DNA of 64,000 nucleotides from Escherichia coli (GCA_032372955.1 GCA_032372955.1_4725.1); one strand, 5' to 3'. Shown: positions 3,301 through 62,583, counted from the stretch's first letter. The notes: generated by a model from the sequence alone, not told the origin. Program-made: numbers and translations.

Positions 3301-3309
3301 CAGCATATC

Positions 3310-3341
3310 CCCTCCTCCTTCCCTGTTGGGTTGGAGGAGGG
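3310..3341. terminator. GC-rich hairpin CCCTCCTCC/GGAGGAGGG between convergent genes, followed by T-rich tract; likely bidirectional terminator
   Basis: perfect 9-bp inverted repeat 3310-3318 / 3333-3341. Confidence 0.5.
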
Positions 3342-3351
3342 TTATGTTTGG

Positions 3352-13682: not shown

Positions 13683-14225
13683 TTAGCCAACAACGCTAAC
13701 GGTCGGTTTCACGAAGCCATCAGCTACGTTATCCGCCAGAACGGTTGCCAGGTCATCTTTCGGTGCAGCTGCGTAGGTCAGTGCAACCTGCAGAGTGCCG
13801 GTATATACCAGGCCATTCTCGATCGCATTCAGAGTTACCTGACCAACAGTACCTGCAGACAGCTGGAAGGTTTCTTCATTGATTTCACCGGTCAGGGAAG
13901 CCAGACCGAATTTGGTGACCAGCTTGCTTACCAGCTCGGAAGCCTTAATGCTGTCGGTACCGTGCGGCAGTTCGAAAGTAACATCGCCAGTTACATCAGC
14001 GAAAACTTCGGACAGAGCCAGACGATCGTAGTAGAACTGCTGAGTACCCTGCAGGTTAGCTGCTTCAGCTGCAGCATCCAGCTGAATAACGGTGTTCTTT
14101 TCATGTTCGGAAGACGTCTGCGGAGTACCGAACTGCAGTTCTTCTTCGGTCAGCGTGCGGGTTGCTTTGGTGTTGATAAGATCAAGCAGAAGGGATTTCG
14201 CTGCTTTGTTAAAGTCTAAGGCCAT
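13683..14225 (-). CDS. hypothetical protein with host-optimal codon usage, probably highly expressed (structural?)
   Basis: in-frame ATG at 14225 preceded by AGAGGA RBS; the ORF-track start at 14324 is probably an over-extension. Confidence 0.5.
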   Translation of the reverse strand: MALDFNKAAKSLLLDLINTKATRTLTEEELQFGTPQTSSEHEKNTVIQLDAAAEAANLQGTQQFYYDRLALSEVFADVTGDVTFELPHGTDSIKASELVSKLVTKFGLASLTGEINEETFQLSAGTVGQVTLNAIENGLVYTGTLQVALTYAAAPKDDLATVLADNVADGFVKPTVSVVG

Positions 14226-14366
14226 GATAATGTGTCCTCTGATTTTTGATGGTCGAAAAGGAGATTCGGAGTCGTTCTCCATAATATTTACATTAATATA
14301 AAATATATTAATTTCTGTAAACACTTACATCTTTTGAGAGTGATGTAACAACCATAGAGGTAGAAA

Positions 14367-15260
14367 ATGGCAACTCAAGTTTCGCTTACTTTAAAAACAC
14401 CTTGGCAACTTATCGTTGATGAGATTAACAAACTCAACGCCGACACTGGTGCCAGCTTCCAATACACCGACCTTAAATACGTTCTTAAAGAAAAGAATCC
14501 TTCTGCTCCAGAAGCAACTTTAACGCTTAGCCCTGGTGATGGTACCCCTTACTTCAATAACCGTGATGTTACCTACCATCGTCTGGATCTGGCTAAATGG
14601 TTCCAGAAAATCGCTGTACGTGTTAACGTTACTGCTGACACCACCATCGGTGATGTGGTTGACCTTGTAGCTCAACGCTACGGTATGATCACACCGACCG
14701 GTGAGAAGTTCCTGGATAAAGATAAAGACATCAAAGCCGATACGTTATCTAATCCGGTTACCTTCAACGAGCATGGTATCCAGACGATCACCCTGGAAGC
14801 TAAAGAAGATTCGTTGGCGTGGTACGGCTCTGTTCAAGTTAAAGTTTATAACACCACGCTGGATCTGGCTAACATCATCAAGGTTACCAATCTGGGTAAC
14901 TTAACCTACGTTGATGAAGGCGACGGCACCAAAACGTCAGCACGTCTGTTAACCTATCCGTTAGACTTCAGTACTTACACCGCAGGTTTACAAGCTATTA
15001 CCAGCAACGATACCAAGATCGATGCAGGCTTAGCAGGTAACCTGACTACCCTGATCAAAGAGCAGACTGGTGTAAGTGATGATATCATCAATGAACTGAA
15101 AACCAATCTGCAAACAGCTACCTTTGTCTATAACGGTGCTACCACCGGGTCTACTGACAAAGGTGTTAACGCTACGTACAGCAATGTGCTGGTGCTGTCG
15201 TTAGCTGACGGTACTCACACCTACGGTAAAGCAGTATTCGGTTATAACGTTTCCGAATAA
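14367..15260 (+). CDS. hypothetical protein, LAWYGSV paralog family member with strongly optimal codon usage
   Basis: 297-aa ORF; GAGG RBS; motif LAWYGSVQV; codons dominated by CTG/GGT/CGT/AAC/TTC. Confidence 0.55.
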   Translation: MATQVSLTLKTPWQLIVDEINKLNADTGASFQYTDLKYVLKEKNPSAPEATLTLSPGDGTPYFNNRDVTYHRLDLAKWFQKIAVRVNVTADTTIGDVVDLVAQRYGMITPTGEKFLDKDKDIKADTLSNPVTFNEHGIQTITLEAKEDSLAWYGSVQVKVYNTTLDLANIIKVTNLGNLTYVDEGDGTKTSARLLTYPLDFSTYTAGLQAITSNDTKIDAGLAGNLTTLIKEQTGVSDDIINELKTNLQTATFVYNGATTGSTDKGVNATYSNVLVLSLADGTHTYGKAVFGYNVSE

Positions 15261-15276
15261 TTTTAATTAATCTCTC

Positions 15277-15308
15277 CCTTCCTCCTTCCCTGTTGGGTTG
15301 GAGGAAGG
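15277..15308 (+). terminator. hairpin CCTTCCTCC/GGAGGAAGG, near-copy of the 3310 element, followed by TTTATGTTTG
   Basis: 9-bp perfect stem, 14-nt loop. Confidence 0.5.
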
Positions 15309-15475
15309 TTTATGTTTGTGATTATTCTTCTCTTTTATAATTTCTAATGATAAGATTAAGTACCTGGAGTAAAAGTTTACAGATGTTGTAAATGTATTTG
15401 GAAAGTAAAATTTCCACGACCTCGGCCCCTTCGGGGGACGGGGGAGGAGCGAAGTCCTTTAGAGACGAGCAACAG

Positions 15476-15542
15476 GATAACTCTAAGAAAAAGAAAAACT
15501 AAACGAGCGAAGCGAGTTTATGTTTTTATCCTTAGAGTTATC
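15476..15542 (+). other. long inverted repeat (12-bp perfect arms GATAACTCTAAG / CTTAGAGTTATC) enclosing an A-run/T-run interior; candidate structured RNA or protein-binding site
   Basis: direct reading of the sequence in the non-coding hub. Confidence 0.35.
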
Positions 15543-15995
15543 AAGCTATAAGCGTAGCGTTAGCGTATAACGGTTATGTCGTATACGAATGCAATGAGTA
15601 TAGACGAGATACTCTGATGAACAACGTGAAGAAGAGTATCACAAATGTTTTTTGAGTTATCCGGATTTAACTAGCATGTAACGAAGTGTAATGCACAGAT
15701 GACATGTGTTACCGTTAAGGTAGTAAACACATGTTATCCATTGTTTTGAAGATAAGCTTATTAACTTACTTTTAAATCAATTTAAATATACAAACAACTT
15801 AAACATACCAAGATAAAACAATTGAACCTAAGATAAACAAGATAACTTAGACAATACACTTTTAACGAATACAGATAACATCTTACTTAAATCAAAATAC
15901 CTATCCTCGTTTACCTTCCTTGCTTGCAACACCTCTTCTAAATCCATCCCTTCTTAAGAAACAACAAAACCCTTACTGTAACACAAATCCTTTCA

Positions 15996-16015
15996 CGACT
16001 ATATTACCTAAGTGA
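15996..16015 (+). promoter_or_regulatory. phage-specific promoter-like element CGACTATATTACCTAAGTGA (copy 1 of 3)
   Basis: 23 of 25 nt identical to the copy at 28497..28520; lies about 85 nt upstream of the first early-type gene. Confidence 0.45.
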
Positions 16016-30976: not shown

Positions 30977-31026
30977 TCACGGCTCTCCTTCATTGGAGAG
31001 CCTGTGACTATCGTTTTTTTTTTTTT
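30977..31026 (+). terminator. intrinsic terminator (12-bp stem plus T13)
   Basis: TCACGGCTCTCC ... GGAGAGCCTGTGA followed by 13 T. Confidence 0.65.
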
Positions 31027-31040
31027 GCTTGACGGCATAA

Positions 31041-31072
31041 CCCTCCTCCAACCCAACAGGGAAGGAGGAGGG
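31041..31072 (-). terminator. hairpin CCCTCCTCC/GGAGGAGGG, exact reverse complement of the 3310..3341 element
   Basis: 32-nt identity to the element at 3310 in inverted orientation. Confidence 0.5.
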
Positions 31073-38886: not shown

Positions 38887-39561
38887 ATGTCCAACCGCGC
38901 TGCAGCAGAAAAATTCATTCTTGGGTATATCAAAGACCTGGTGGGTGAATCGAGCCCGACTTACGCTATTTACAAAAAACGTTTTGCTGAAATCGATGAT
39001 GAGACGTTTGATGCGTATATGCGTTTATGTCGGGATAAGAAAGAGATTCTACCCATCTGGGTACCCAACATGAACAAAAACGAGGTGACGATAAAACGGG
39101 CGTTGGAAGTCGGTAAGAAATACGGTTTCCCTTTCTTCCAACGCATTTATCTCACCGACCAGAAAACAGGACAATTGGTGCTTCGTGACCGCCCAACCAG
39201 ATTGTACCTGATTCCAAACCGCCGACAAGCCGAAACGTTGAGTGCTAAAATATCGATTCCGAAAAACAACAACACCAAGGACCAGCTCACCAATCAGCCG
39301 ACGGGTGATAGTAAAGGTTCCACTTGGAGCCAGCCGGAAATGCAGGCGACGTTAGGACGGTCGATGCCGAACGTGAACCGAGAGTTGATGCAGGCTCGTG
39401 GTGGCGACGATAAGAAGTTCAACGCGATGAACCGCATGCTGTTAGAAACAGGTACCGTAAGCTTGGAGCAGCTCCCTGAAGACAGCAAGGCAAAATCGGT
39501 TTCGGCGGTTGGTGTTATCCTCACCGCGATGCATCTCCAGAATAACCTTGATGAGGGCTAA
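38887..39561 (+). CDS. hypothetical protein
   Basis: 224-aa ORF; GGAG RBS. Confidence 0.5.
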   Translation: MSNRAAAEKFILGYIKDLVGESSPTYAIYKKRFAEIDDETFDAYMRLCRDKKEILPIWVPNMNKNEVTIKRALEVGKKYGFPFFQRIYLTDQKTGQLVLRDRPTRLYLIPNRRQAETLSAKISIPKNNNTKDQLTNQPTGDSKGSTWSQPEMQATLGRSMPNVNRELMQARGGDDKKFNAMNRMLLETGTVSLEQLPEDSKAKSVSAVGVILTAMHLQNNLDEG

Positions 39562-46142: not shown

Positions 46143-49100
46143 CTACTGTGCGTACCTTGTCCGTGTTGGAGAGATTCCTTGCGGACGATTAGGTAGTGAC
46201 ATCGTCTGTTGTTGAGAAGGACCTGCAGAACCCTTACCGATAGAAGAACCCTTAACGGCTTGGATTAATTCCGAAATAAGTTCATTCGTTCTACCGGTGT
46301 TCTTTTCGATGTTCTGCTGTGTGGTCAGCTGCTGTCGGAGAATTTCACCTGCGCTACCGTAGAAGTTCTCACTTGCAACCGATGTTTGTGTCGCAGACTG
46401 CGCAACCTGTGCAGGCGTATTCGGAACCGATATCCCTCGATTTGCACCCGGGTTTGACGGCAAATCGCTAGGTGCTGGAGTTGATGTCGGTTGTCCTGCC
46501 GCGGCTTTTGCTGTTTCGAAACTTCCGGGCGTTGGTGATGCTTCTCCAGGTGCTGGGGCCGTCCCGGCAGCCGCAGACGGTTTAGATTCAGGGATAGTAG
46601 AAGATACCGGGGCTTGCGGATCGTTGCTTACAGCAGGTGTTCCGTTTGCCTCTTGTGCTGCTTCGTTCTTCACCTGTTCGGCGGTGGTCGGTCCTTCAGC
46701 TTGATCGTCTGATGTTGATCCCGATAACTCGTCCATCATTTTCTTCAGGGTGCCATTCTTAGCCGCCTGAATCCAATAAGCAGAACGTTGTTCAACATCA
46801 CGTAATCCGTTAAAACCACCGTTAACCAGATAACGAACTTGGCGCACATCACCCCGTTTTGCGGGATCGCGTAACACGTTACCTCGGTTGAGCCACCATG
46901 CAACACTACCTTCCGCCGCACCTTCCGGCGTTTCCAGGTATGTCGGATCGCTGACAAGATCCTTGTTCAAGGTCTTGGACAGACGAGCGTAGTTAGCTTT
47001 ACCGGTAACCTGAATGAAGCCACGTCCTAAATACTTCGCCCCGTCTCCTTTCTGTGTGTTTCCTAGATCTTTACGATTACCATACACACGTTCGAATACC
47101 GCTTCCGGCCCCATGCTGATCGTCTGTGCGGCATCCTGCACATCACGGAATTTGTAAGGGAAGACCTGTTTAAGACGCTCTGGTGTCTTATAGTTCCCCT
47201 CACGTACGTGAGTGTAGTTCCCCGATTCATGTTCGATGTTCGCAAGGAACATCGCCATTTCCATTGGATCGGTAATGCCGCGTTTTACAGCGGATTTAAC
47301 AAGCGCACGACGTCCAGCTTCAGGACCTGGTCCCATTGCAGGTTTCTGTAAGCCCATGTTAGGCAATCCAGTAAGATCGCCGGTTGACCCTAATCCCGCA
47401 TTGGAAGTAGCCGAAGCAGTAAAGCTGCTTGCACCTACCCTATTCCCATTGGGGTTGTAATTCGCTTCGGCGTTACTCATCCCACCGGTAATGCGTGATT
47501 TCTTCTGCCAGACACCGTCTTTCTTCTCGTACCCAGCCTGCTTCATCATCAGCTCTTGGATCTTCGATAATTTATCGGTATCCTCTTGCGATGCTTCCGC
47601 GTTCTTCTCACGAACCTTCTCTTTATCCGCATATTCTTTTAACAGATCGAGCTGGCTCTTTGTTGAACTGCTGGTGGTGTTAGCTTCAGTACCGGAGAAA
47701 CCACAACTATTCCAGGACCATACAGGCTGCAGTGTACCTTTCTCATCACGGTATTGCGTTGCGACAAGTGCTTCACCGATTTCCCAACGTTGGCTGTCTT
47801 TCAGGTTCTGTACCACGTCGGACAGAAGTCCTTGACCGCCCATGTCGCTAACGTGTTGGTAATAGGTTAAAAAGACGGGCAGGAAACGGTTATTCATCCA
47901 AGCAAACCAGATATCCTGATCCCGCTTGCTGTTAACGTCCCGTCCGAACTTCGTCGCGAATTTCTTGTAGAGCGCGACAAGATCGCCACCGTATTTAACA
48001 CCTTTACCTTCAGCGACAACGCCAGGTTCTACAGCGTCTTCGAGTTCCATCAGCACTTTTATCTGACTTAGCAACGGAACCTTAATACCGTACGCACGAA
48101 CACGGAGACTGGTGAGTTCATCGATGTATCCACCGGCAACCCATTTTCTACCACGACGGTCTACGCTTTCAATAACCGCGGTCGCGTCAAGCTTCTGTCG
48201 TCCTTTAGCGCCAGCGCTGTTGTAACGTTTATCGTTAAAACGTAACGACGCTTTCTGACCGCGTAATGCGTTAGGCGCAACGGATTTACGTTGTGTGTCA
48301 GACATCCGTGACCAATCAGCAATAGCCTCATCATGAGAGTATTGCTTAATCTGATTCTGGTACTCTTTCTTGATGGCTTCGAGTTGTTTCAGCATCAAGG
48401 TTTTGACGTCTTGACCAGCAATATAACGCGTCGCACCAGAAGAACCCAACGGGTTAGCTTCGACGTAATACGGACCATCAGGACTATCGGAAGGCCAGAT
48501 AAACGCTTCCGACCATTTCACTTTGTTCTCACCGTTCGGATATTTATCCATTTCCATGTATTTCTTCTCGTCCGGCATATGCTCTTTCCAGAGTTTGTAC
48601 GCACGAGCGAAAACAGGAATAAAACGATGCAGATACCAGCGTTTCCATTCGTTCATTCGGTCGGAATCTTCCAGGGACAATTCCCAGATTTCGAGAATCT
48701 TTTCAGAATCCGCTTTCGGATCGAATCCGATGGTATCCCCGGTCATGACCACATGGTCGGTGAGGTATGTTTCTGTCGCAAGCAGCTTCTTATTGAAGTC
48801 TTTATCGTCCCCTTTTGCACCGTATGCAATAAGACGGAGCTTCTGCATCGGGTCAGGCTTCTCAGCGAAATGCTGATAGATCTTCCATCCAGCATAAGCA
48901 GCCAACGCACCACCTGCAATAGCAAGCCCAACAGGTGAGATAAGGAATGCACCTAATCCCGATAACCCACCAACAGCGTTCAATGCGGCCCCGCCCGCCA
49001 TTAACGCACCACGTCCTAACCATCCTGCTGCACTTAGTCCTCCCTTGACTAGCGCGCCGGTTCCACTAATGAGACCCTTGCCTAACAACCCGGTTAACGA

Positions 49101-52100
49101 TGCACCGCCGCTTAACACCGCCCCAAGACCGCCTAGAATTTTTCCAAGCGGACTCGCCATGAGTCGTTTACCTAATGCGGTATCGCCGAGCATATCGAAA
49201 AGGCTTCCGAGTAATCCCCGTTTCTTCTCCTTTTCTTCTCCTTTATTGGAATCTTTGCCGGTGTCGTCCTTACCGTTTTCCTTGGCTGCACGCTTACGTT
49301 TCAGGTCTTCCAACGATCCTTCTCGAACACCATCGCCATTCCAATCGCGGTAATCCTTATCGCCACCCGGCATACGCTGGTCAAGAAGCTGGTAAATAGC
49401 ATCGAGGCGATCTACCATGCTCGACGTTGTTCCCACCAGTAATGCGTCAGGTGATTGGAAATTTAATCCCATCCGTCGTAGACCGTTAACGGTTTTACCT
49501 GGAAGGGCTTTAAGGATGTCCTTTGTCTTACGTAGCAGCGTTAACGGTAACGTAAAAGCTTTTACGCCGAAGTTGATGAGCTTTTCTTTTAAACGACGAA
49601 TCGCTTTACCGTATTTATCGACAAGTCCTTTCTGCATGTCGGCAAGCGTAAGTACGACGTTACCTTGTGCATCAACAACATCACCATCGATGTCTTCAAG
49701 ATTTTTGATGACTTGTCCATCAGAGCGACGGAAATACCCGCCAGCTGCTAACACCATGGACAACAGACGAGGCGTTGATTCTCCCTTGACGTAAACGTCG
49801 GGTGTTTTGTCAAGCTGTTTGTAGATCTCGACCGCACCGCGTTTTAACATCCGTGGCAGACTTAATACCGTCGTGATTCCATTAAGACCTTCACGTGCCC
49901 ACGCCTTAAGTCCTGAATTCTCAAAGGCACGACCAGCGCGAGTGACCAACCCTTTCTCGATATCCTCGTTGCTGATTACGATGTTTCCATCCGCATCAAC
50001 GAGTGGGCCTTTGATATCCTTCATCCGTTTTACGGCTTTTCCTGTCGCTTCGTCGAAGTATAACCCCTGACGAAGTTTGGCAGCCAGTATGCGTGGTTGG
50101 GATTCCCCTTTAACGTAAATGTCAAACGGAACCTGATCAACCTTGGATAATGCGCCGAACACAAAACGGTTGAAATTGATAATGCGTCGGCCGGAATTTA
50201 CCAAACTACCCAACGTGCGTTCTGCACCCCAGCGTGCGCCTTTAACACCCAAACGTGCGGTATTTTTAATTCCTTTCCAGAGGAGATTACGGCCACCTTT
50301 AAAGAGGTTGCGTGCACCGAGTTTTTGTTTGGCACGATCGATAAATGAAATGGGTGCTGTACCTTCAGGTACATCTTCACCATCCAGTGAAACGTTATTA
50401 GACCAGTCTTTCTCAGAAATGGCTTTCAGCAACGCAAGCATTTCAGTACGTTGTTCGGATGCTTCAGATAACGCTTCGAGATAAAGCTCTTGCCACGCTC
50501 GATTCTGTTCTTCAAGCGATGTGGTGATAACACCCGTGTCGTTCCACCATTTATCATAGCCGATGTTTTCATCAACGGTTACTGTTCCAACAGCCTTGCG
50601 ATCGATGTTCGGCAGACCCGCATTTTGGACGTCATCAACTGATGGTTTTGCGTCACGATAACCTAGCGCCAGCGCTCTTGTTTCCTGAGCGGTTAATCGC
50701 GTATTAACATCACTACGTTCAGCGTACTCCGGTCGGTCGATGTATCGATCGATTTCAGAGAAATACCGATCGTGATTAACCGAGTAGCTTCCGTCGCTAT
50801 TTCTCGTTACGATACCGATACGTTCCAGATATTGGACGTCACCAGTACGTTTCAGTAGGTTAAGGTTACGCTGGATATCCGGTTGTAACGATTTCAGATT
50901 TCCGTAGCGAAGATCCGCTCGGTTACGTTCCGTGTAATATTGCCCGCGGTTTCCAATGACCTGATGACGTTCGCCCTTATCGTTGACATCATCACGAATA
51001 CCGTAACGGTCACGAAAGTACGTGGAAAGTTCCTTAATAGCGTCGCGGTCAATACTACGATCGAAGTTGCTTTCATCCGTAAAACGAGCCGGGTCGAATG
51101 CGATGTTTGCGTCGCTATCTCGTGCCAGCTGCTTAGCCAGTGCCTTCCTGGCTTTTTCCGATAATTGTTTATCGGGATCGACGACCGAGATAACCTCATT
51201 GAAACGGCTGGCGTAATAACCAAATGAACGTTTGTTAAACAGGGTGTCGTTGACGCTTTGTTCGCGCGTGCGCTGAGCCACGAATTGCCCGCTGATGCCG
51301 TCATAGACCTCGTAGTCGGGATCGCTGTTTCCCGTGCGGATGCCTTCACTGCTTTTCAGAATGCGAGCAAGAAAACCAGGAATAACTTCATTGATGCTGC
51401 GGTAAGTTAAACCGTCGAAAGACGTCTGCTCCGCCAATGTTTCAGCGGTGTCGTTCATCACACGGAAGTTACGTCCGCTGTCCATGTTGAACGCCCAACG
51501 CCCTGCGCCGCGTAACAATTGCTTGTAAAACGGATCGTTAAGATTGAATTCGTTTTTACGAATATCTTCCTGGAGCAGTTTACCGAGATTACGCGTCGTG
51601 TAAGCGGCAGCCTCACCACCTTGATCCACGGCTTTTAACGCGCTAGCGAATTTAGCGTTGGGGTGACGTTTTGCTAAATCGCGTAACGCCATCCTGCCTT
51701 TATTAGCCATCCATGGTGCGACAGTTGAGCCAATGAACTGACCCAACATCTTTCCTTGCATTTCCTTAATATCGCCTTCTGACCCCATCCCATCCATCAT
51801 GGACATCGAGTCACGTGCTTCGTTTAAACCGTATAACGCATCGTTTGCGCCAGACACGACGCCTTTTAAAGCACCTAATGCGTTGGTGGCAAGGTTCTTC
51901 TTAACATCGGCAAAGAAACGGTTCTCGAAAGAACTCATCGCATCTAACGCGTTACCAAAGAAACGTTGGTACGCGCTACGGCGGAATTCTTCCGACATTT
52001 TTGCTTTAGCTGCATCAGGTAAAGCCGTATTCTTCTGGATGTTTTGTAATAAACCGATATAGACTTCGGCTAACTTTTTATGCTGATCAAAACTTGCACG

Positions 52101-52808
52101 TTGAATCGCTAAGGAACGATATTTCAGTTCCAGGCTTTTACGCATGTAGCGCGCGGCGAATTCATTGTTGAAACCAACCATCTTGGCGACGCCTTCTTGC
52201 ATCGCACTCATTTGTTTGTTGGTTACAGCGTACCGTTTGTCAGCGATATCGTCACGGATACTCTCTTTCGCTTGCTGCTCAGCAAACTGATCCGCGTTTT
52301 GGTTTGCTGATTCGCCTAATGCCTCGGCAACCTTGCGGGCGATCTCATCGTCCCCCGCGCTCGCCATGCGTTGACGAAGGGTTTCTTCAGCATGTTTACG
52401 TTCGTCTTCTTCCTTGGCTTCTCGCTCCCACTGCTCGAGAATTTTCTTCGAGAAATCGGGCATGCTCGCGCGGTATTTCTTGGTCAGTTGTGCAGCTAAC
52501 CGTTTTGAGCTTTGGACCTTAGGAAGAACGTCACGAACGGCTTCATTGTATAGTTCCTTCGTGGATCCGACGGCGGAATCGATAAGATCCATACCGTCGC
52601 TGTAGCCCTTAGGCAATGCGTTTCTGGCGATCTCCTTCATTCTTTCGTAGGAAGTAAGATCTTCAGCAGCACCTTTAACCGCGCCTATCGCAAAGCGTGT
52701 TATCGGTTTACGATCGTCTTTGGGTTCGTTAAAATCGAGATCCAGGGAGAAGTCATCATCCCAGTTATCCCAATTATCATCACCCTCAACACGGGTTTTA
52801 TCTACCAT
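46143..52808 (-). CDS. giant virion-type protein (2221 aa) with glycine-rich hydrophobic segment and embedded lysozyme/muramidase-like domain
   Basis: GGAGG RBS before ATG 52808; EHESGNY and GRGFIQVTG lysozyme-like motifs encoded around 46800..47290; Gly-rich TM-like tract; Pro/Ala/Ser/Thr-rich C-terminus. Confidence 0.7.
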   Translation of the reverse strand: MVDKTRVEGDDNWDNWDDDFSLDLDFNEPKDDRKPITRFAIGAVKGAAEDLTSYERMKEIARNALPKGYSDGMDLIDSAVGSTKELYNEAVRDVLPKVQSSKRLAAQLTKKYRASMPDFSKKILEQWEREAKEEDERKHAEETLRQRMASAGDDEIARKVAEALGESANQNADQFAEQQAKESIRDDIADKRYAVTNKQMSAMQEGVAKMVGFNNEFAARYMRKSLELKYRSLAIQRASFDQHKKLAEVYIGLLQNIQKNTALPDAAKAKMSEEFRRSAYQRFFGNALDAMSSFENRFFADVKKNLATNALGALKGVVSGANDALYGLNEARDSMSMMDGMGSEGDIKEMQGKMLGQFIGSTVAPWMANKGRMALRDLAKRHPNAKFASALKAVDQGGEAAAYTTRNLGKLLQEDIRKNEFNLNDPFYKQLLRGAGRWAFNMDSGRNFRVMNDTAETLAEQTSFDGLTYRSINEVIPGFLARILKSSEGIRTGNSDPDYEVYDGISGQFVAQRTREQSVNDTLFNKRSFGYYASRFNEVISVVDPDKQLSEKARKALAKQLARDSDANIAFDPARFTDESNFDRSIDRDAIKELSTYFRDRYGIRDDVNDKGERHQVIGNRGQYYTERNRADLRYGNLKSLQPDIQRNLNLLKRTGDVQYLERIGIVTRNSDGSYSVNHDRYFSEIDRYIDRPEYAERSDVNTRLTAQETRALALGYRDAKPSVDDVQNAGLPNIDRKAVGTVTVDENIGYDKWWNDTGVITTSLEEQNRAWQELYLEALSEASEQRTEMLALLKAISEKDWSNNVSLDGEDVPEGTAPISFIDRAKQKLGARNLFKGGRNLLWKGIKNTARLGVKGARWGAERTLGSLVNSGRRIINFNRFVFGALSKVDQVPFDIYVKGESQPRILAAKLRQGLYFDEATGKAVKRMKDIKGPLVDADGNIVISNEDIEKGLVTRAGRAFENSGLKAWAREGLNGITTVLSLPRMLKRGAVEIYKQLDKTPDVYVKGESTPRLLSMVLAAGGYFRRSDGQVIKNLEDIDGDVVDAQGNVVLTLADMQKGLVDKYGKAIRRLKEKLINFGVKAFTLPLTLLRKTKDILKALPGKTVNGLRRMGLNFQSPDALLVGTTSSMVDRLDAIYQLLDQRMPGGDKDYRDWNGDGVREGSLEDLKRKRAAKENGKDDTGKDSNKGEEKEKKRGLLGSLFDMLGDTALGKRLMASPLGKILGGLGAVLSGGASLTGLLGKGLISGTGALVKGGLSAAGWLGRGALMAGGAALNAVGGLSGLGAFLISPVGLAIAGGALAAYAGWKIYQHFAEKPDPMQKLRLIAYGAKGDDKDFNKKLLATETYLTDHVVMTGDTIGFDPKADSEKILEIWELSLEDSDRMNEWKRWYLHRFIPVFARAYKLWKEHMPDEKKYMEMDKYPNGENKVKWSEAFIWPSDSPDGPYYVEANPLGSSGATRYIAGQDVKTLMLKQLEAIKKEYQNQIKQYSHDEAIADWSRMSDTQRKSVAPNALRGQKASLRFNDKRYNSAGAKGRQKLDATAVIESVDRRGRKWVAGGYIDELTSLRVRAYGIKVPLLSQIKVLMELEDAVEPGVVAEGKGVKYGGDLVALYKKFATKFGRDVNSKRDQDIWFAWMNNRFLPVFLTYYQHVSDMGGQGLLSDVVQNLKDSQRWEIGEALVATQYRDEKGTLQPVWSWNSCGFSGTEANTTSSSTKSQLDLLKEYADKEKVREKNAEASQEDTDKLSKIQELMMKQAGYEKKDGVWQKKSRITGGMSNAEANYNPNGNRVGASSFTASATSNAGLGSTGDLTGLPNMGLQKPAMGPGPEAGRRALVKSAVKRGITDPMEMAMFLANIEHESGNYTHVREGNYKTPERLKQVFPYKFRDVQDAAQTISMGPEAVFERVYGNRKDLGNTQKGDGAKYLGRGFIQVTGKANYARLSKTLNKDLVSDPTYLETPEGAAEGSVAWWLNRGNVLRDPAKRGDVRQVRYLVNGGFNGLRDVEQRSAYWIQAAKNGTLKKMMDELSGSTSDDQAEGPTTAEQVKNEAAQEANGTPAVSNDPQAPVSSTIPESKPSAAAGTAPAPGEASPTPGSFETAKAAAGQPTSTPAPSDLPSNPGANRGISVPNTPAQVAQSATQTSVASENFYGSAGEILRQQLTTQQNIEKNTGRTNELISELIQAVKGSSIGKGSAGPSQQQTMSLPNRPQGISPTRTRYAQ

Positions 52809-53053
52809 GTATACCTCCAGTTCGATACGTTCCCATGTTACGTTGGAACGTGATGCACGAAGTTTACCTTCGGCATTGATAATGTTGAAGCGTAACTTCA
52901 CACATCGCCCGCTTGATTTTATCAAGCAGGTACGTAACCTAATAACTTCCTCGCCTCAAGCAAGGAAGCGATGGGTGACGCCATCACCCATTACGTCTCT
53001 CGTGTGTTCAGATGATACCGCCGCAGCCGGTGGTGGTAAAGAGGAGTGTCTCC

Positions 53054-54520
53054 ATGGCTAAAGTCAGAGAGCCGTTTAATATTAGCATTTTGCGCCTCGA
53101 TAAACAGCAGTTACGTTTTCTCCCCAAGATCACGAGCATGAGCATCCGTGACCCAAGCACCGGTAATTTCCACGATGATGGTTTCTATTCTTACACCATC
53201 TTTGGTAGTGCGGGTAGTGAAGATCGAGACCGTCGATTTGCGGTGATCGAATGCAAGGTTGAAATCCTACACCCCGTCATTTACGACCGCCTCATTCGAC
53301 TAAAACACCTCTATGGCGATATCATGTCGGGGAAGGCGTACGCTCGGTGGGATCCTGAACAACGCGACTTCGTTGCGTCTGATGCGTTAACAGGACAAAC
53401 AGGATACGGGTTCTTTGCACAACACGTCGCGGATATCAAGTTCGTTTCAACGGGTTCAGCTCAACGAGAGCTACGAATTAAAGTTGTCGAAGAGAACATG
53501 TTCAAAGCGATGACCCGTCACTTACTGGTATTGCCTGCGGGCTTACGCGAAATAGAAGTAAAAGAAGGCGGGTATGAAAGCGAGCAAGAAATCACGGAGT
53601 TGTATCGTCGTTTCCTTGCAATTTCTAACACCGTCCCTGATGGATTAAAAGATTATTCTGATCCCGTTTACGACGGTCAACGTTGGAGCTTACAGAGAAC
53701 ATTTAACGATATCTACGCTTTGTTGTTGGATATGTTCCAAGGTAAGAAAGGGATCTTCCAAGGTAAGTTCGGTTCACGTCGCGTTTGGAACTCAACCCGT
53801 AACGTTATTTCGGCAATTAACCCCACAACAGAGGTACTAGGGTCGCCCAACCAGCCTTCCTGTACCGCAGTTCAGTTAGGGTTATACCAGATGAGCAAAG
53901 CCGCCCTACCCGTGACGCAACATGCGTTACGTACGGGGATTTTGCAGGAAATATTTGTCCGTGATGTTACAGAAGTTGAACTTATCGATACCGAAACGAT
54001 GGAACGTGAACGTGTCACGCTTGATCCAGACACCATCGATGACTTTACAACATGGGACGGAATAGAACGTTTATTGAACACCTTAAGCGATCCTGGTGTA
54101 CGTAACGAACCCATCATGGTTAATGGGCGTTATCTTTGTCTCGTCTATGTGAACAATGATTCGTTTCGGTTATTCCGTGGTATGAGTGAATTACCCCCGG
54201 AGATGCTGAATAAGCCTGGTGCGGATGTTCACCCCATCACGTACACCGAGCTTATCTATATTGCCGGATATAAGTACTGGAATAACCTGGCTGCGATGGT
54301 AACACGTTATCCGGTATCGGGTATGCAATCCGTTATCCCGTTAACCTGTTACGCGCGTACAACCGTTGCAGCAAAACCGAAAACCGAACTGGATAGTAAC
54401 TGGGAACCAATAACGGATGAACGATTTATCGCATGGGAATACCCCGACTGGTTACCTAATGCCTCGTTCGTAGAAACTACTATTGTTCCTGCGCCATACC
54501 TCGCCGGTTTAGGCGGTGAT
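53054..54520 (+). CDS. RNA polymerase beta-prime-like subunit, N-terminal module, exon 1 (predicted 3' boundary)
   Basis: AAGAGGAG RBS; beta-prime-like segments ELYRRFL and GKKGIFQGKFGSRRVWNSTRNVI; boundary placed after U54520 by homology and frame. Confidence 0.6.
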
Positions 54521-55002
54521 AAGTCCTTGAAAAATAAAGACTTTTTTCAATGGAAGTTGTCCGGTATTCCCGAAAGGGAGTGCTTGAAAAACCTACGAAT
54601 TGCTGGGAACCCCTAAAGCTCAACGACCCATGAGGTGCCGAAAGGCAGAAACAACAGTTGAGATGCACTACCTCCCACGGAGGCTTAGGCTGAAAGAAAA
54701 GCCGCGTAAGCGGTGCTAAGGTGCGCGATAATGGGCAATCAGCAGCCTGGTTGTTGCGTAGTAATACGGCATTCTTGAAAACAAGAATGTGAAACAACGC
54801 AGGTTCAACGACTAAGGGATTTACCACCCTGTAGAGGACAAGCGTCTTCGAAGTGTAGGTTACCGTAACAGGTGTTGCTGAAGTATTCTTCAGCGAAGCT
54901 GACGGTTTGATATAGTCTCCTCTTGCATGAAAGTGCAAGCAGCCTGTGATGTACGTATCCATGCAGGCGGTCTCAGCGTAGCGACCTGAGGCGAAGACAA
55001 GG
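54521..55002 (+). ncRNA. group I intron (ORF-less), intron 1, boundaries predicted
   Basis: Q-like AATCAGCAGC 54737-54746, R GTTCAACGACTAAGGG 54793-54808, S GATATAGTCT 54909-54918, P8-like hairpin CTTGCA/TGCAAG; flanked by two halves of one conserved protein motif. Confidence 0.7.
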
Positions 55003-55182
55003 TTCGACGGTGATACGGTCTCGGTTAACGTTCTTTATTCCATGGAAGCCATTGACGAAATTACCAACTCGCACAAGAAGCGAGCTTTCTGGGTAAGTGG
55101 TAAAAATAAATTCAACATCGATATTGGTTACGATACGGTTGCGTTTCTATTACGCAACTTAACGGGACCTCGTGGAGCCTAA
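55003..55182 (+). CDS. RNA polymerase beta-prime-like subunit, exon 2 (begins FDGDTVSVNV...)
   Basis: frame encodes FDGDTVSVNVLYSMEAIDEI...IGYDTVAFLLRNLT, matching bacterial [20 protein letters not shown]...SQDVVLGLYYMT; stop at 55180. Confidence 0.6.
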   Translation, partial: FDGDTVSVNVLYSMEAIDEITNSHKKRAFWVSGKNKFNIDIGYDTVAFLLRNLTGPRGA

Positions 55183-55185
55183 CCC

Positions 55186-58100
55186 ATGGCAAAACTTAAA
55201 TACCTTGATTACTACCGACAGTTTGGTGTCAGACGCTACCAAGAGCTACTATCACCAAGATTACGTTTAGTGCAGCTACTGCAGCTGCCGCGTTATGCTG
55301 TCTATCATTACACCGCAACGGATCCTTCATTGATAGGTCCTCCAGAAAACGAATACATGCTGAGCAAAGAAAGTGCTCAACTATGGATTTCGTTTGCTGA
55401 TGATCTCGCAACCAAACAGGGTGCACCCCGACGTGATCAACGATTCCAACTCCCACGAGCGAAATTGGATTATCGTGCATCACATCGTCGTTTTCGTTTG
55501 GTTACCGATCTAAGCGCGGTGGAGAAAAACATCAACGCTCAGATCGTTGCTAACTACGCGCATCTTAACCACATGTACATTTATCGTCCAACGCTCACCC
55601 GTTGGTATGATGAATGGTTCAACGTACGTAAAACAATTTGGTCGAAAGCCAACGAAATCGCACAGCAAAGCGATCGTCAACACTTTTTGTTGTTCCGTAT
55701 ACCGTCAAAATTGCCGAAGATTTCGTTGATGCGTACCACGCAACAGGCACCGACCCGTAACAACCTCATGAATTTCGCCACGCCGGAGGAGCTGTCGTTC
55801 TTTGACTTCTTCCGCTGGTTGGGCGTCGATCGTGAGAACAGCACGATGGCTTCGTTAGACAGGGCCATGCTGGATAAGCTTAACGTCGTATTTACAGACG
55901 GTGTGTACTTCTTTACGCTGAATCTCGGCCTGCTGGAGGAATGGCGTACCGGACTTGTGAAGGAAGGGGAAGAACTCGATAAAACGACGCTTGAAACCTT
56001 CCAACGACGTTGGATGATGGCGGTAACACGTCTGTGGTCGCAGAGTGCGAATGAAGAAGAACAGAAACAAGAAGAGGAACAGGTTCTTCGTCAAGAGCGA
56101 GATATTCTTGCAGCCAGCCCGGATGCGGAGTACGATGATCGTGACGTCGTGCTTCCTAACGGTGAGGATCTGGCTACCGTTCTCGATCCCGATGAGTTAG
56201 AAGCGGAGTTGGTCGGTGGGTCGGATGAAGACGATGATGCTGATGCATGGAACGCCATCGTAGAACGCTCGTTCGAAGATGTCCGTGAAGTACCTGGGGT
56301 AGAAGTACAACCGGATTTCCAACCTGATGAAGATCAGGACATTACCGACGATCTCTTCGAAGTCGTTACCGACGATACCGAAGAAGAAAAGGTTGATGTC
56401 TTTGACGCGGCAACGTTACCAAAAACGCATGGCGAATATATTCAGTCGCTATCGGATGCGGTGTTGGTACGCGCGAGTGATCTGGCGGATGCGGGTCAGT
56501 TAAGCGGTGTCCAGTATAAAGCAGCGATGCGTAACGCCGACGCCATTCACGAAATCGAAGCACCCGACGGTTCTGGATTAACACTTGCTGAGTATGTCGA
56601 AGTTAAACCAAAAGCCGCAAAATTAGCTCCCGCAAAGGTTATGCCGGAAGCGGATGTTATCGTCGACAAGAGCTTATGTAAATCGACGCTCGCGGTGTGG
56701 GATAAACATTACGTCGAACACGTAATGCAAAAGGACATCGCAGCTGCCGTTGTTGCGGTACAGCAGGCGGGTTACCCTGTTACGGGATATAAAGTTGAAG
56801 ATGTTGTTGACGTGATGGGGGACTATCAAGTCATCACGATTAAACTGGCCCCTGTAGGCGGTGTCCCGACCACGTTCCCGGTGATGTTGCCGAAGGTTCG
56901 TAAGGACGGCATTTATGTCGTTAACGGTATCAAGTACCGGATGCGTAAACAACGCGTCGATAAACCTATTAGAAAGGTATCGTCATCTGAAGTCGCATTG
57001 AGTACCGCCTACGGTAAGGTGTTTGTTAAACGTTCAGAGCGCGTCGTTAATAACGCCGGTCGTTGGTTAACACGCCAACTTACGGCGATGTATTACGATA
57101 AGTCCTCGCCCTTAACAACGTTAAAACGCGGTAACGTCTTTGATCCGGCTGTCAAAGTTCCGTATTACTTCGCTGTGCTTGCACGCAACTATACCCAAAT
57201 CCAATTTGCTGATTGGGATATACGTCTCGATATAAAAACATTGCCGGAGTTCATCGGGGAAGATCGGTTCAACGAACAGTTAGCCGAAGGACTCCTGACG
57301 TTCGCGCGTAACACGTTGGGTGAATTCTTAGCAATCGATAAACGCAATCAGCTCTATATCTGTCAGTCGGGACAAACACCAACACCTGTAGGGACGTTCC
57401 CTGATTTCTTCGGCATTAATGCGGCTAAGATGCCGATCGAAGCCGCCGATCTTGAATTCATGGGTGTACGTATTCCGGTCGGTGTTGTTCTAAGTTATCT
57501 GGGTGGGCTTACCCCGTTATTAGAACATCTTAAAGCGAACTATCGTACGGTACCTCGCGGCTCTCGTATGGGGTTAGCACCCGATGAATTCGCAGTGAGC
57601 TTTGACGACGAAAGTCTGATCTTCAGTAAAGACGATCGCATGACGACGTTGTTGCTGGGTGGGTTTAACGAATACCGTAACTACATTGGTTACGCTCGCG
57701 GTGCTTTCGACAATCGAGATATCTATTTTAACGTTGTTGATGGTGCTGGACTTAAGGTTCGCCATTTGCGCGAACTTGAACTCATGGAGCGTCTTTTCAT
57801 CGATCCGGTAAGCCGTACGTTGTTGCAGAACATGGGAGAACCTACCGATTTCGCCATGTTGTTACTGCGTGCTGTTGAACTGCTTCTGGATGATTGGGCA
57901 CCTAACACGAACGATGTGAACTACCAACGTTTTAAAACGTACGATAAGTTCGCTGAATTGGTGTATAAGGACCTGGTTGGCGCTATTCGTCAGAATGAGA
58001 ACAGCAGTCAAGGGAACCGCCAGAAAATCTCAATCAGTCCGGTAAGCGTCTGGAACCAAATTCTCGACGATAGCGCTTCCATCGTGATCGATGAAACCAA

Positions 58101-58335
58101 CCCGATGCTGGATATCAAGCAGGGTGAAGAAGCAACGATGACCGGTATCGGGGGTCGTTCAAAGACATCGCTTCGACGCGCACGTGATCGCGAATACGAC
58201 AAGTCGGACATTGGTGTTGTATCCGAAGGTACGAAGGATAGTGGGGACGTAGGTATTTCTGCTTACCTCGCACCTAACGCAAACATTGTGTCTGTATACG
58301 GTGAAACGAAACCTTACGACGAGAAAACGGATGGT
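55186..58335 (+). CDS. RNA polymerase beta-like subunit, N-terminal module, exon 1 (3' boundary approximate)
   Basis: ATG 3 nt after the beta-prime stop; C-terminal part DETNPM...TGIGGRS...RRARDRE...SEGTKDSGDVGISAYLAPNANIVSVYGETKPYDEKTDG parallels E. coli beta DQNNPL...LGPGGLTRERAGFEVRDVH...[36 protein letters not shown]. Confidence 0.55.
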
Positions 58336-58874
58336 AGCTCGTCAATAATGAGTACATCAGCACTTGCAGTACCTGCTGCTGATAGAGATGATTAACGCTT
58401 TTAATAGCAGGGTCCGTCTATGTGGCGACATGTAGATGAGATTCACTGAATTGCGAAGACATCCGTCGCTGTTATCGACCAAAACGGATTCTGAAAAGAA
58501 AGACGGTACGGTATAAAAACAGATAATAGCTTAAGGACAATCCGCAGCCAAGTACCTAAGGATCGCTGTGAAGCGTTCTAAGGTAAAGGTTCAACGACTA
58601 AGGGATTCATCCCCCTGTACCCCTCGAGTGAGGCATTCTCCTTGGATAAGAGAATGGTGCTGGATGCGCTGGGAAGAAGTGAACTCTCGTTGAGGTGCTG
58701 AAGAAGCACCGTTTGAAACGAGATGTGATATAGTCTGCTCTTGCGTGAGAGCGCAAGCGGGAGGTGGTGCGCCTATCATCGCCTCCGGGATAAGACTAAC
58801 GACCTTATCTGAACAATCTAATCTCAGTCTTATTTCGGTAACGGTATGTTAATACTGAATAAGAACTAAATTCG
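58336..58874 (+). ncRNA. group I intron (ORF-less), intron 2, boundaries approximate
   Basis: P-like AATTGCGAAG 58449-58458, Q AATCCGCAGC 58539-58548, R GTTCAACGACTAAGGG 58589-58604, S GATATAGTCT 58727-58736; homologous to intron 1 with a compensatory change in the P8-like stem. Confidence 0.7.
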
Positions 58875-60014
58875 CCCAAGAGATTGGTATTTATAGGTAT
58901 CCAACACAACCGCATGATTGCTGCTGAAGGTTACGATGTACAGCCGTGGCGTACGGGTGGTGAGACTGTTATCGCGCATCGTGTTGGTAAGCTCTTCGCA
59001 GCAGCTGCCCAAGGCGATGGTGTTGTGAAGAAGGTCACTAAAACTGCGCTGACGATACAGTACGACGACCCAGAGTTAGGGGAAGAGGTTTTCCAGCTCG
59101 GTACGATAATCGGGAAAGGACCAGGTAAGTATTATCCTCACGATCTCATTACCGATTATAAAGTCGGGGATCGCGTTAAGGATCAGGATGTGGTGGTTTT
59201 CCACCGCCTTTATTTTAAACGCGATTGGTGGAACCCAGGTCAGGTTGTTTGGCGCGCAGGTGTTCTGTCTCTTGTCGGTATTCTGGATATTCCAGAGACC
59301 CACGAGGACAGCTCGTATATCTTCGACAATCTTGCTGATCGTCTCGTAACACCATCGATTAAGAGTCGTACGCTTATCGTTGACGCTCATCTCAACATTC
59401 GTGGTCTCGTGAAAATCGGTGATCATGTTGAACCGCGAACGATTCTTGCAACACTGGAAGAACCGATTGCAACCGATCTGAGTGATGAGAGTCAGGAAGC
59501 CGTTGAAGCATTACGTCGTATGAGTCAGTATAACCCACGTGCTGATGTTCATGGTGAAGTTGTACAGATCGATGTACTGTACCGCGCTCAGATTGAAGAC
59601 ATGAGTGAAACCATGGCAGCGCTCGTCGGTGAGGCAGATAAAGCACGAGCTAAACGCGTCAAGGAACTGAAACTCAACGAAGCAACAACGGGGCGTATCA
59701 ATAACAGTAACGTGAGAATAGACGGTAATCCGTTAGGCGAGAACCAGATCGCCATCCGTATTTTCATGCGTTACGACCTTGGTGCGGGGATGGGTGATAA
59801 AGGTACCTTCGCAGCTCAAGCGAAATCCGTTGTCTCTTCCGTGGGTCATGGTGTGAACAAAACCGAAGACGGGCACACCCTTGATGCTATCTTCAGTGGC
59901 ACCAGTATCGCTAACCGTATCATCGGTTCACCGGAAGTGGTTGGGACTGTGAATCTTGGTCTCCTCTACGCAACGGAACGAGCTGTTGATATTTACTTTA
60001 ACGACGCTAAATAA
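58875..60014 (+). CDS. RNA polymerase beta-like subunit, exon 2 (5' boundary approximate)
   Basis: open frame extends upstream of the track start (TTG at 58884) to 58863; IGIQHNRMIAAEGYDV parallels E. coli beta IHYLSAIEEGNYV directly after the TDG motif. Confidence 0.55.
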   Translation, partial: PKRLVFIGIQHNRMIAAEGYDVQPWRTGGETVIAHRVGKLFAAAAQGDGVVKKVTKTALTIQYDDPELGEEVFQLGTIIGKGPGKYYPHDLITDYKVGDRVKDQDVVVFHRLYFKRDWWNPGQVVWRAGVLSLVGILDIPETHEDSSYIFDNLADRLVTPSIKSRTLIVDAHLNIRGLVKIGDHVEPRTILATLEEPIATDLSDESQEAVEALRRMSQYNPRADVHGEVVQIDVLYRAQIEDMSETMAALVGEADKARAKRVKELKLNEATTGRINNSNVRIDGNPLGENQIAIRIFMRYDLGAGMGDKGTFAAQAKSVVSSVGHGVNKTEDGHTLDAIFSGTSIANRIIGSPEVVGTVNLGLLYATERAVDIYFNDAK

Positions 60015-60048
60015 GAGCAGGGGGCGTCATGCCCCTGCTCATTTATTT
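60015..60048 (+). terminator. intrinsic terminator GAGCAGGGGC/GCCCCTGCTC plus T-rich tail
   Basis: 10-bp perfect stem, then ATTTATTTCG. Confidence 0.6.
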
Positions 60049-60115
60049 CGCTGAACGCAATACCTTCTTGACATGCGTCAAGAATGCGATGCTTTGACAT
60101 TAAAAGGAAAAGTGA

Positions 60116-61872: not shown

Positions 61873-62583
61873 ATGGCGCTTGTCCGCAACGGTGCTGCGG
61901 TGCTTGCGGACTGGGACATACAAGAAGATAAATCTGTTGTTACTCGTGGCGGGTGTTCGATTCTGACGCCCGTCCGTTACGAGGGATTGGGTTTATCTAT
62001 CATCGGGAGTGAGAACCGGGTTTGTGCGTGCTGCCCGATTATTCTTCCTGATGGACAGTATGGTGTCAGCCACGCATTGACCCAGCTCCATATCGACCCA
62101 TCTGACATCCGTGAGATTACCATGGATGGTCAGCCGTTTTATGAATTTGTGTTTCTTCCCGGCGACACGGTGTTGGTGTCAACCGATGTCGTGATGCGAA
62201 ACTCTTTCCCGTGGCTGATGTATAACGAGATCTATACGCTCGGTAAAGTGCCATGGTGGTATACCGAAAAAGAAAAATATCAATTGCTGTACACGTCAGC
62301 GAAATTGGCGGGCGTTAAATTGAATGCGGATAGCAGCATCTATTCTGTTCTGGCGTCTATCACCACACGTGACCCCAACGATCGTCGTCGGGCGTGGCGT
62401 CTGCTTTCGGATGAAGAACGCAGCACCTTAAAAGCCATCGACATCGGATTACGAAACATTATCGATAGTGGTACAAACACCATCACCAACTTAATGGGTG
62501 GTTACGTGAATAACGCAATCGATAGTAGTTTGGTTTATCCTGCGGATACGATCAGCGAAACAGAAGCGATTCTGAGGGGGTGA
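61873..62583 (+). CDS. hypothetical protein
   Basis: 236-aa ORF; GAGGTG RBS; abuts previous stop. Confidence 0.5.
   Translation: MALVRNGAAVLADWDIQEDKSVVTRGGCSILTPVRYEGLGLSIIGSENRVCACCPIILPDGQYGVSHALTQLHIDPSDIREITMDGQPFYEFVFLPGDTVLVSTDVVMRNSFPWLMYNEIYTLGKVPWWYTEKEKYQLLYTSAKLAGVKLNADSSIYSVLASITTRDPNDRRRAWRLLSDEERSTLKAIDIGLRNIIDSGTNTITNLMGGYVNNAIDSSLVYPADTISETEAILRG

Follow-up and report, generated by a model that had tools for sequence, protein, structure and literature searches.

Escherichia phage vB_EcoM_Goslar (NC_048170; 237,307 bp; genus Goslarvirus) is a phiKZ-like, nucleus-forming jumbo phage. Its purified particles are reported to contain all five subunits of a virion RNA polymerase (vRNAP), gp78, gp196, gp205, gp207 and gp210, with gp205 and gp207 identified among the virion proteins by liquid chromatography-tandem mass spectrometry (bioRxiv 10.64898/2026.04.21.720040). 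These phage enzymes are not known to have alpha or omega subunits (PMC7598289). In the phage PhiPA3, the vRNAP beta gene (gp211/gp210/gp209) carries a mobile group I intron with an HNH homing endonuclease, and interference competition by PhiPA3 against phiKZ has been shown (Birkholz et al. 2024, PMC11620839). Here, a 64,000-nucleotide (nt) stretch of DNA from Escherichia coli (GCA_032372955.1), referred to in its entirety as the window, was compared with these systems. Positions 53054-60014 are most probably the core two-gene unit of the packaged multisubunit vRNAP of a Goslar-like chimallivirus, with each gene split by a 482-nt group I intron at a codon that falls in a strongly conserved motif of the catalytic site; a probability of roughly 0.9 is assigned to this reading.

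A sequence-only reading of the region, made without database searches, had placed it in a phiKZ-like jumbo phage. This placement was borne out: the entire window is collinear with Goslar at 94-97% nucleotide identity in a local comparison, Goslar was the only megablast match to positions 53000-60100, and the two genes are homologues of Goslar gp205/gp207 and phiKZ gp180/gp178. Only two large differences from Goslar occur across the 64 kb: intron 1 of Goslar contains an HNH gene, with 1.57 kb at its 5' end where the window has 38 nt, and the window contains intron 2, a stretch of ~480 nt inside gp207 that is absent from Goslar. Listing of open reading frames (ORFs) between 50 and 64 kb gave three long plus-strand ORFs (53012/53054-54616, 55186-58395 and 58884-60014), separated by a gap of 570 nt, which contains a short in-frame ORF ending at 55182, and a second gap of 490 nt. 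The unit can be laid out as follows, with a slash marking each exon junction.

53054-54520, plus strand: vRNAP beta'-N exon 1; 489 codons, ending ...LAGLGGD; start equivalent to that of Goslar gp205.
54521-55002, plus strand: group I intron 1; 482 nt; RF00028 match at 54535-54939, 64.1 bits, E 6e-14; splits GGD/FDGD.
55003-55182, plus strand: vRNAP beta'-N exon 2; 59 codons and stop, beginning FDGDTVSVN...
55186-58392, plus strand: vRNAP beta-like exon 1; 1069 codons, ending ...AVPAADRDD.
58393-58874, plus strand: group I intron 2; 482 nt; RF00028 match at 58391-58757, 52.8 bits, E 1.5e-10; lies after the DD of DRDD/PKR.
58875-60014, plus strand: vRNAP beta-like exon 2; 379 codons and stop; carries the GDKG...K barrel motif.
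60015-60040, no strand assigned: G+C-rich hairpin terminator; the stem has nine pairs, 7 of them GC, with a T-rich tail on each strand; a terminator is annotated at the equivalent position in Goslar.

The terminator closes the two-gene unit, and co-transcription presumably extends up to 60015-60040.

The predicted spliced product of gene 1 comprises 548 residues (...LAGLGGD/FDGDTVSVN...), in good agreement with the beta'-like module of about 547 residues that had been anticipated. Residues 3-543 matched profile positions 3-538 of 539 in PHROG 2986 (E 2.9e-179), and this end-to-end match was obtained only after splicing. The GGDFDGD motif is likewise formed only by splicing and is followed by 55 residues; it aligns with ADFDGD of 201phi2-1 and PhiPA3 and with DYDGD of the beta'-N subunit of phage AR9. 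A family profile of 33 sequences matched the AR9 RNA polymerase (RNAP) beta'-N chain 7S01_d (E 5e-13), DYDGD included, with the end of the family coinciding with the end of the chain. The same profile also matched residues 211-356 of E. coli beta', together with cyanobacterial/plastid beta' and gamma. Judged by sequence, gene 1 is a gene for a beta'-N subunit with the Mg-binding DFDGD loop, and its counterparts are Goslar gp205, phiKZ gp180 and 201phi2-1 gp275. Packaging of its product in the virion is predicted by orthology with Goslar gp205. Homologues of gene 1 were found in 310 phage records, the majority of them uninterrupted. One uninterrupted beta'-N protein (P0155), 99% identical, is encoded on a 238,276-bp contig filed by NCBI under Salmonella enterica serovar Enteritidis; this contig is either a contaminant or the genome of a Goslar-like phage within a Salmonella assembly, which would have host-range implications.

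Gene 2 begins 3 nt downstream, as had been pointed out before: between the TAA stop of gene 1 at 55182 and the gene 2 ATG at 55186 lie the three bases CCC. The spliced product of 1448 residues aligns to Goslar gp207 without gaps over its whole length at 98.6% identity. The PHROG scan of gene 2 was made by way of this gapless homologue, and gp207 matched PHROG 3148 over positions 2-1420 of 1424. A family profile of 40 sequences matched the beta subunit of T. thermophilus (E 2.3e-14) in three blocks, spanning residues 396-464, 530-656 and 822-876. In the second block, EHDDANR of T. thermophilus beta is aligned to DRDDPKR, the consensus of the 40-sequence family alignment; in the third, GDK...HGNKG is aligned to GDKGVF..QLK at profile positions 1312-1364. 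The protein has an N-terminal part specific to the phages and, after it, a region equivalent to roughly residues 400-905 of T. thermophilus beta, which extends past the second double-psi beta-barrel motif (GDKG...K). Its counterparts are Goslar gp207, phiKZ gp178, PhiPA3 gene 211 and 201phi2-1 gp273/274.

The RNAP assignment proposed in the sequence-only reading thus agrees with the profile searches, in which PHROG 2986 and 3148, AR9 beta'-N and T. thermophilus beta were matched and not unrelated families. The accompanying claim that both proteins stop before their C-terminal halves held for beta'-N, which ends about 55 residues past DFDGD and represents roughly the N-terminal third of bacterial beta'. 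It did not hold for the beta-like protein, which lacks about the last fifth of beta and not half, because coverage reaches about residue 905 of 1119.

The N-terminal ~560 residues of the beta-like protein have no detectable counterpart in bacterial beta, and an acidic low-complexity (E/D-rich) stretch is present at residues ~290-405 (window 56050-56400). A word-indexed protein search with the 1448-residue protein returned 2 matches only, probably owing to this stretch, and residues 559-1069 served as the query in the search of cluster representatives. Comparison of beta exon 1 as a single sequence with solved structures gave noise only, and family profiles were required.

A scan of the whole window with Rfam gave exactly two matches, one per gap, both to RF00028 (group I intron), covering model positions 1-253 in each case and lying above the gathering score of 50 bits. 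Intron 1 contains no sense-strand ORF of at least 40 residues and intron 2 none above 41 residues; ORFs in either intron, including antisense ORFs of 160 and 62 residues, were unmatched in Pfam. The suggestion that these introns are free of endonuclease genes was accordingly upheld. The 160-residue antisense ORF, initiated by ATG and running over nearly all of intron 1 (window 54480-54962, minus strand), had been considered as an endonuclease and was rejected for want of a Pfam family match. It is probably a chance occurrence because spurious ORFs of 110-150 residues are common in the window. In Goslar, its frame is shifted by a ~27-nt insert, yet a long antisense ORF remains open.

The splice junctions could be placed to the nucleotide. 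Each upstream exon terminates in U and each intron in G. Identity between gene 1 and Goslar breaks exactly after GGTGAT at 54520, and the sole in-frame continuation that restores a polymerase motif is TTC GAC GGT GAT at 55003, directly after the G. An uninterrupted 548-residue protein (P0153) from intron-less Goslar-like contigs (L007-L012, without an intron at site 1) is 100% identical over 100% of spliced gene 1, and ADFDGD or ADYDGD spans this site in the homologues of 201phi2-1, PhiPA3 and BUCT660, which are uninterrupted. Given that the identity break, frame restoration, intron-less alleles and homologues agree, intron 1 is assigned to 54521-55002. Junction 2, at the site equivalent to D675 of E. 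coli RpoB, is fixed by the gapless alignment of Goslar gp207 to spliced gene 2. Intron-less alleles read GGTGGGGAC/TTTGAC at site 1 and GACCGYGACGAT/GGAAAACGT at site 2. The predicted junction peptides are ...LAGLGGDFDGDTVSVN... and ...APYLAGLGGDFDGDTVSVNVLYSMEAIDEITNSHK for gene 1 and ...AADRDDPKR... and ...AVPAADRDDPK for gene 2, and unspliced RNA would give readthrough peptides such as GGDKSLKNKDFFQWK.

In the minimum-energy fold of intron 1, U54520 is paired with G54559 in P1, which has a stable loop hairpin and is followed by P2; the loop hairpin occupies the place of the Goslar HNH gene. The P1 drawn in the Rfam alignment (GACUUUU/GGAAGUU in intron 1) was also considered. Its adoption would move the 5' splice site ~24 nt downstream, and it was ruled out since Goslar identity breaks at 54520, the Goslar HNH gene would fall in an exon and intron-less alleles read GGD-FDGD directly.

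Occupancy of the two sites differs among closely related genomes, as set out below (site 1, beta'-N gene; site 2, beta gene).

L007 and L009: site 1 empty; site 2 empty.
L008: site 1 empty; site 2 intron of 461 nt, no ORF.
Goslar: site 1 intron with HNH gene; site 2 empty.
Window: site 1 intron, no HNH gene; site 2 intron, no HNH gene.
L015 (IMG/VR 3300045988_173921): site 1 ribozyme present, 5' end outside the locus; site 2 intron, no HNH gene.
L013 (IMG/VR 3300011560_000001; 237,533 bp): site 1 outside the locus; site 2 intron with a 403-residue HNH/NUMOD1 protein.

Among Goslar-like genomes, both sites were found empty, filled by an intron with an HNH gene and filled by an intron alone. At site 2, the occupied alleles of the window and L008 diverge from the empty alleles by 20-21% in the ~300 nt round the junction and by about 4-5% elsewhere. 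The two bins around the junction contain 30-32 (window) or 22-32 (L008) differences per 150 nt, as compared with about 6 per 150 nt elsewhere. The window and L008 share one haplotype here, where the empty alleles are identical among themselves. Such diverged flanks would be expected if homing from a more divergent donor had co-converted the exon flanks. At site 1, occupied and empty alleles differ by four synonymous changes within 9 nt of the junction, and the last exon base is T in occupied and C in empty alleles.

The endonuclease ORF of L013 (3054-4265, in an intron region spanning 2979-4620) is of the HNH/NUMOD1/I-TevI type, begins just after the 5' splice site and reads into the ribozyme core. 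Its product is 36% identical to PhiPA3 gp210 (E 3e-56), and therefore a PhiPA3-type 'weaponised' intron also circulates in E. coli-type chimalliviruses. Window intron 1 retains sequence resembling the last gp206 codons of Goslar (TTGAAAAATAAAG versus TTGAATAAATAG). Endonuclease ORFs often extend into pre-existing intron sequence, however, and the endonuclease-free state may reflect loss of the HNH gene or may be older than the arrival of that gene. When introns of different phages were aligned globally in pairs, every pair gave 73-84% identity in gap-rich alignments, which did not resolve their relationships.

Interruption at the DD codon is widespread in public data: among the 150 best representatives of 50%-identity clusters in the gene 2 family, 78 end within 25 residues of the DD site and 33 exactly at it, a fraction that clustering of truncated gene calls may inflate. 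Matches to beta'-N in tblastn searches end at residue 489 in several phages (Goslar, LucasX (MW825358) and PhiPizzaParty (OQ992562)), which suggests that site 1 is occupied in other phages too. In 2050HW, FishSpeaker, phiRU and C-ZP2022, tblastn matches begin or end at the beta DD site. Together, these end points suggest further unannotated introns at both sites in distant chimalliviruses (LucasX, PhiPizzaParty, 2050HW, FishSpeaker, phiRU and C-ZP2022).

An absent endonuclease gene, a short P1 and an intron 2 score of 52.8 bits, barely over the threshold of 50, could be taken to mean that the introns have decayed and no longer splice, in a defective genome or a misassembly. This is very improbable given that the exons contain neither frameshifts nor stops, that the encoded proteins match those of viable relatives at 98.6-100% identity and that the full ribozyme model is matched in both introns. 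Moreover, intron 2 without an endonuclease gene is found again in independent samples, in L008 at 96% identity and also in L015, and the cultured, viable phage Goslar shares the intron 1 core at 96% identity.

Natural fragmentation is a feature of jumbo-phage RNAPs (PMC7598289), and the pieces are called as separate genes in many genomes, as the 78 representatives ending near the DD site illustrate. The interruptions might therefore be left unspliced, the polymerase simply being split further and its fragments assembling after translation. The chance of this is slighter still. The interruptions lie within DRDD/PKR and the Mg-binding DFDGD motif, complete group I ribozymes fill both gaps, and the fused protein is encoded exactly by intron-less alleles. 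Furthermore, no start codon precedes FDGD in exon 2 of gene 1, so that initiation at the first ATG of this exon (55042) would lose the motif, and exon 1 would acquire a 32-residue non-homologous tail that is different from that of Goslar.

Three further genes of the window are relevant to the vRNAP assignment.

38887-39561, plus strand: vRNAP subunit of 224 residues, homologue of Goslar gp196 and phiKZ gp149; PHROG 3233, E 1.1e-65.
46143-52925, minus strand: giant virion protein of 2260 residues with a C-terminal lysozyme/endolysin-like domain; PHROG 3201, E 1.6e-291; homologue of Goslar gp204.
61873-62583, plus strand: homologue of Goslar gp210, 236 residues, fifth vRNAP subunit; position-for-position collinear; PHROG 2926, virion structural protein.

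By collinearity, the window thus has homologues of four of the five Goslar vRNAP subunits (gp205, gp207, gp196 and gp210), and the beta'-C gene (Goslar gp78 homologue) presumably lies outside it. The earlier statement that the remaining modules must be encoded elsewhere was not sustained, two of the three (38887-39561 and 61873-62583) being inside the window. The product of 38887-39561 is 36% identical to PhiPA3 gene 172, annotated as a phiKZ gp149 homologue (E 4e-46), and phiKZ gp149 co-purifies with gp178, gp180 and gp80 (PMC10612078). This gene probably encodes the missing C-terminal module of beta. The gp196 family consensus includes a motif, QPTGDSKGS...PE, that resembles the beta C-terminal QPLGGKAQFGGQRFGEME region.

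The giant protein gene lies just upstream of the RNAP genes and is transcribed in the opposite direction. Residues 1875-2097 of its product match endolysin PHROG 181, with a weak match to Glyco_hydro_19, in keeping with the adjoining giant lysozyme-domain protein described from sequence. It is syntenic with the giant virion proteins 201phi2-1 gp276 and PhiPA3 gene 213, and the order giant lysozyme-domain virion protein, beta'-N, beta is kept in Goslar, 201phi2-1, BUCT660 and PhiPA3. Split beta and beta' occur in both the virion and the non-virion (middle/late) RNAP, and gene 1 weakly matches a second RNAP family (PHROG 2987, E 1.4e-5), but an origin of the two genes in the non-virion enzyme is as slight a prospect as unspliced fragments, given that the best family matches run end to end with the phiKZ gp180 and gp178 families, that synteny with the giant protein is as in phiKZ-like phages, that the Goslar orthologues are present in purified virions and named vRNAP subunits, and that 201phi2-1 gp275 and gp273/274 were identified by mass spectrometry.

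Several observations weigh against assignment of the locus to an intron-split vRNAP unit. The proteins of gene 1 and gene 2, unspliced or spliced, were unmatched in Pfam, and the beta/beta' assignment draws on profile searches and phage-specific families; absence of a Pfam match is usual for these very divergent enzymes. Splicing is deduced from the ribozyme matches and the intact exons. P1 of intron 1 is short, comprising 5-6 pairs including a U-G wobble. In the minimum-energy fold of the 5' region of intron 2, the splice-site U lies outside any U-G pair, and P1 can be formed only by a GAU/GUC pairing drawn by hand and continued through one bulge. The family profile of 38887-39561 gave no match against solved structures. 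An AlphaFold model of its product, with a mean predicted local distance difference test score of 67, gave weak Foldseek matches (E 0.1-1.2), all 50 of those listed being RNAP beta chains.

The observations can be explained by a model in which the pre-mRNA would self-splice, restoring GGD/FDGD and DRDD/PKR and giving proteins of 548 and 1448 residues. Both products would assemble with those of 38887-39561, 61873-62583 and the beta'-C gene outside the window, and the five-subunit enzyme would be packaged in the capsid, injected and used to transcribe early genes. From comparison, the introns may descend from, or be related to, HNH-endonuclease-driven mobile introns, here without an endonuclease gene of their own. 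It is proposed that they persist because imprecise removal would destroy an essential active site.

A tentative extension, which we consider rather doubtful, is that endonuclease-free introns serve as standing immunity alleles that split HNH targets and shield essential vRNAP genes while sparing the cost of a nuclease. If so, intron 1 would guard against endonucleases of the Goslar gp206 type at GGD/FDGD and intron 2 against those of the PhiPA3 gp210 type at DRDD/PKR in co-circulating Goslar-like phages, and the four occupancy combinations among about 95%-identical E. coli phages would represent an ongoing arms race in a tractable host.

The window is a new instance of a known arrangement, the genes and split architecture being textbook for phiKZ-like phages. 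Introns in these vRNAP genes have already been annotated in 201phi2-1 (EU197055), and one was studied functionally in 2024 (PMC11620839). The addition made here is modest: a Goslar-type E. coli phage in which two introns without endonuclease genes occur side by side, one of them interrupting the Mg-binding DFDGD motif. With its public relatives, the window provides the full series at both sites (empty, intron with HNH gene, intron alone) in near-identical genomes. This series is a convenient natural system for intron homing, endonuclease gene loss and endonuclease-mediated competition in E. coli. It also carries a warning for annotation, in that gene calling routinely yields truncated fragments of these genes.

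Two further observations concern the window at large. Positions 31014-31065 span both ends of the linear Goslar record, and because the two alignment blocks overlap by 52 nt, the record ends either repeat each other or were set arbitrarily, which fits a circularly permuted genome or a terminal repeat. The lowest G+C content of the window (0.407, as compared with about 0.47-0.49) is found at 14001-16000, which corresponds to ~850 bp between Goslar gp021 and gp022 in which no genes are annotated.

Among described systems, the Goslar locus gp205/gp206/Intron_gpI/gp207 has the same genes, order, flanking genes and terminator as the window. Its intron 1 occupies the same GGD/FDGD site and has the same ribozyme, at 96% identity over 473 aligned core positions. 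Unlike the window intron, it carries gp206, a 490-residue HNH_3 and NUMOD1 endonuclease, between the 5' splice site and the ribozyme core, which the Goslar record annotates 3' of gp206 as Intron_gpI. Alignment of the Goslar intron (L001:12094-12566) with window 54559-55002 shows ~27 extra nt in Goslar, located peripherally towards the 3' side of the ribozyme at the equivalent of window 54895. Goslar also lacks 3 nt (GUU) beside the putative internal guide sequence, and its predicted P1 is weaker than that of the window. Goslar gp207 has no intron 2, and its junction reads DDGKR, in contrast to DDPKR in the window and the family consensus.

The intron-encoded endonuclease that the sequence-only reading had mentioned for such a gene is a real one, PhiPA3 gp210 (PMC11620839), and its intron lies at the exact codon position of window intron 2. 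Both introns are in the same gene family (phiKZ gp178 type) at the identical insertion point after two conserved Asp residues (E. coli RpoB D675); the PhiPA3 sequence, ...SMNDD/intron/MKRVGF, confirms the identity of the site. Read by eye, the two share a 3'-terminal hairpin element, GGGAUA..CUAACGA..UAUCUGAA. By contrast, window intron 2 has no endonuclease gene, the 5' part of its ribozyme is unalignable to that of PhiPA3 by BLAST, and the host is E. coli rather than Pseudomonas.

A further parallel is Pseudomonas phage 201phi2-1, whose gp273/274 was annotated in 2008 as an RNAP beta subunit with a mobile intron. Like the window, it has a group I intron (~336 nt) without an endonuclease gene at the same DD codon, with gp275 (beta') and gp276 (giant virion protein) as neighbours. 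Unlike the window, its intron is shorter, its beta' gene is intron-less, and the proteins are about 40-57% identical across the junction region. BUCT660 has a 424-nt intron at the DD site.

The window proteins are extremely divergent from bacterial RNAP, with which they share DFDGD in beta' and NPxxxLxxKxxVTxxGxGG, HDDANR-like and GDK..K motifs in beta. In the window, beta' is split about 50 residues past DFDGD, as in the non-virion RNAP of AR9 (PDB 7S00/7S01).

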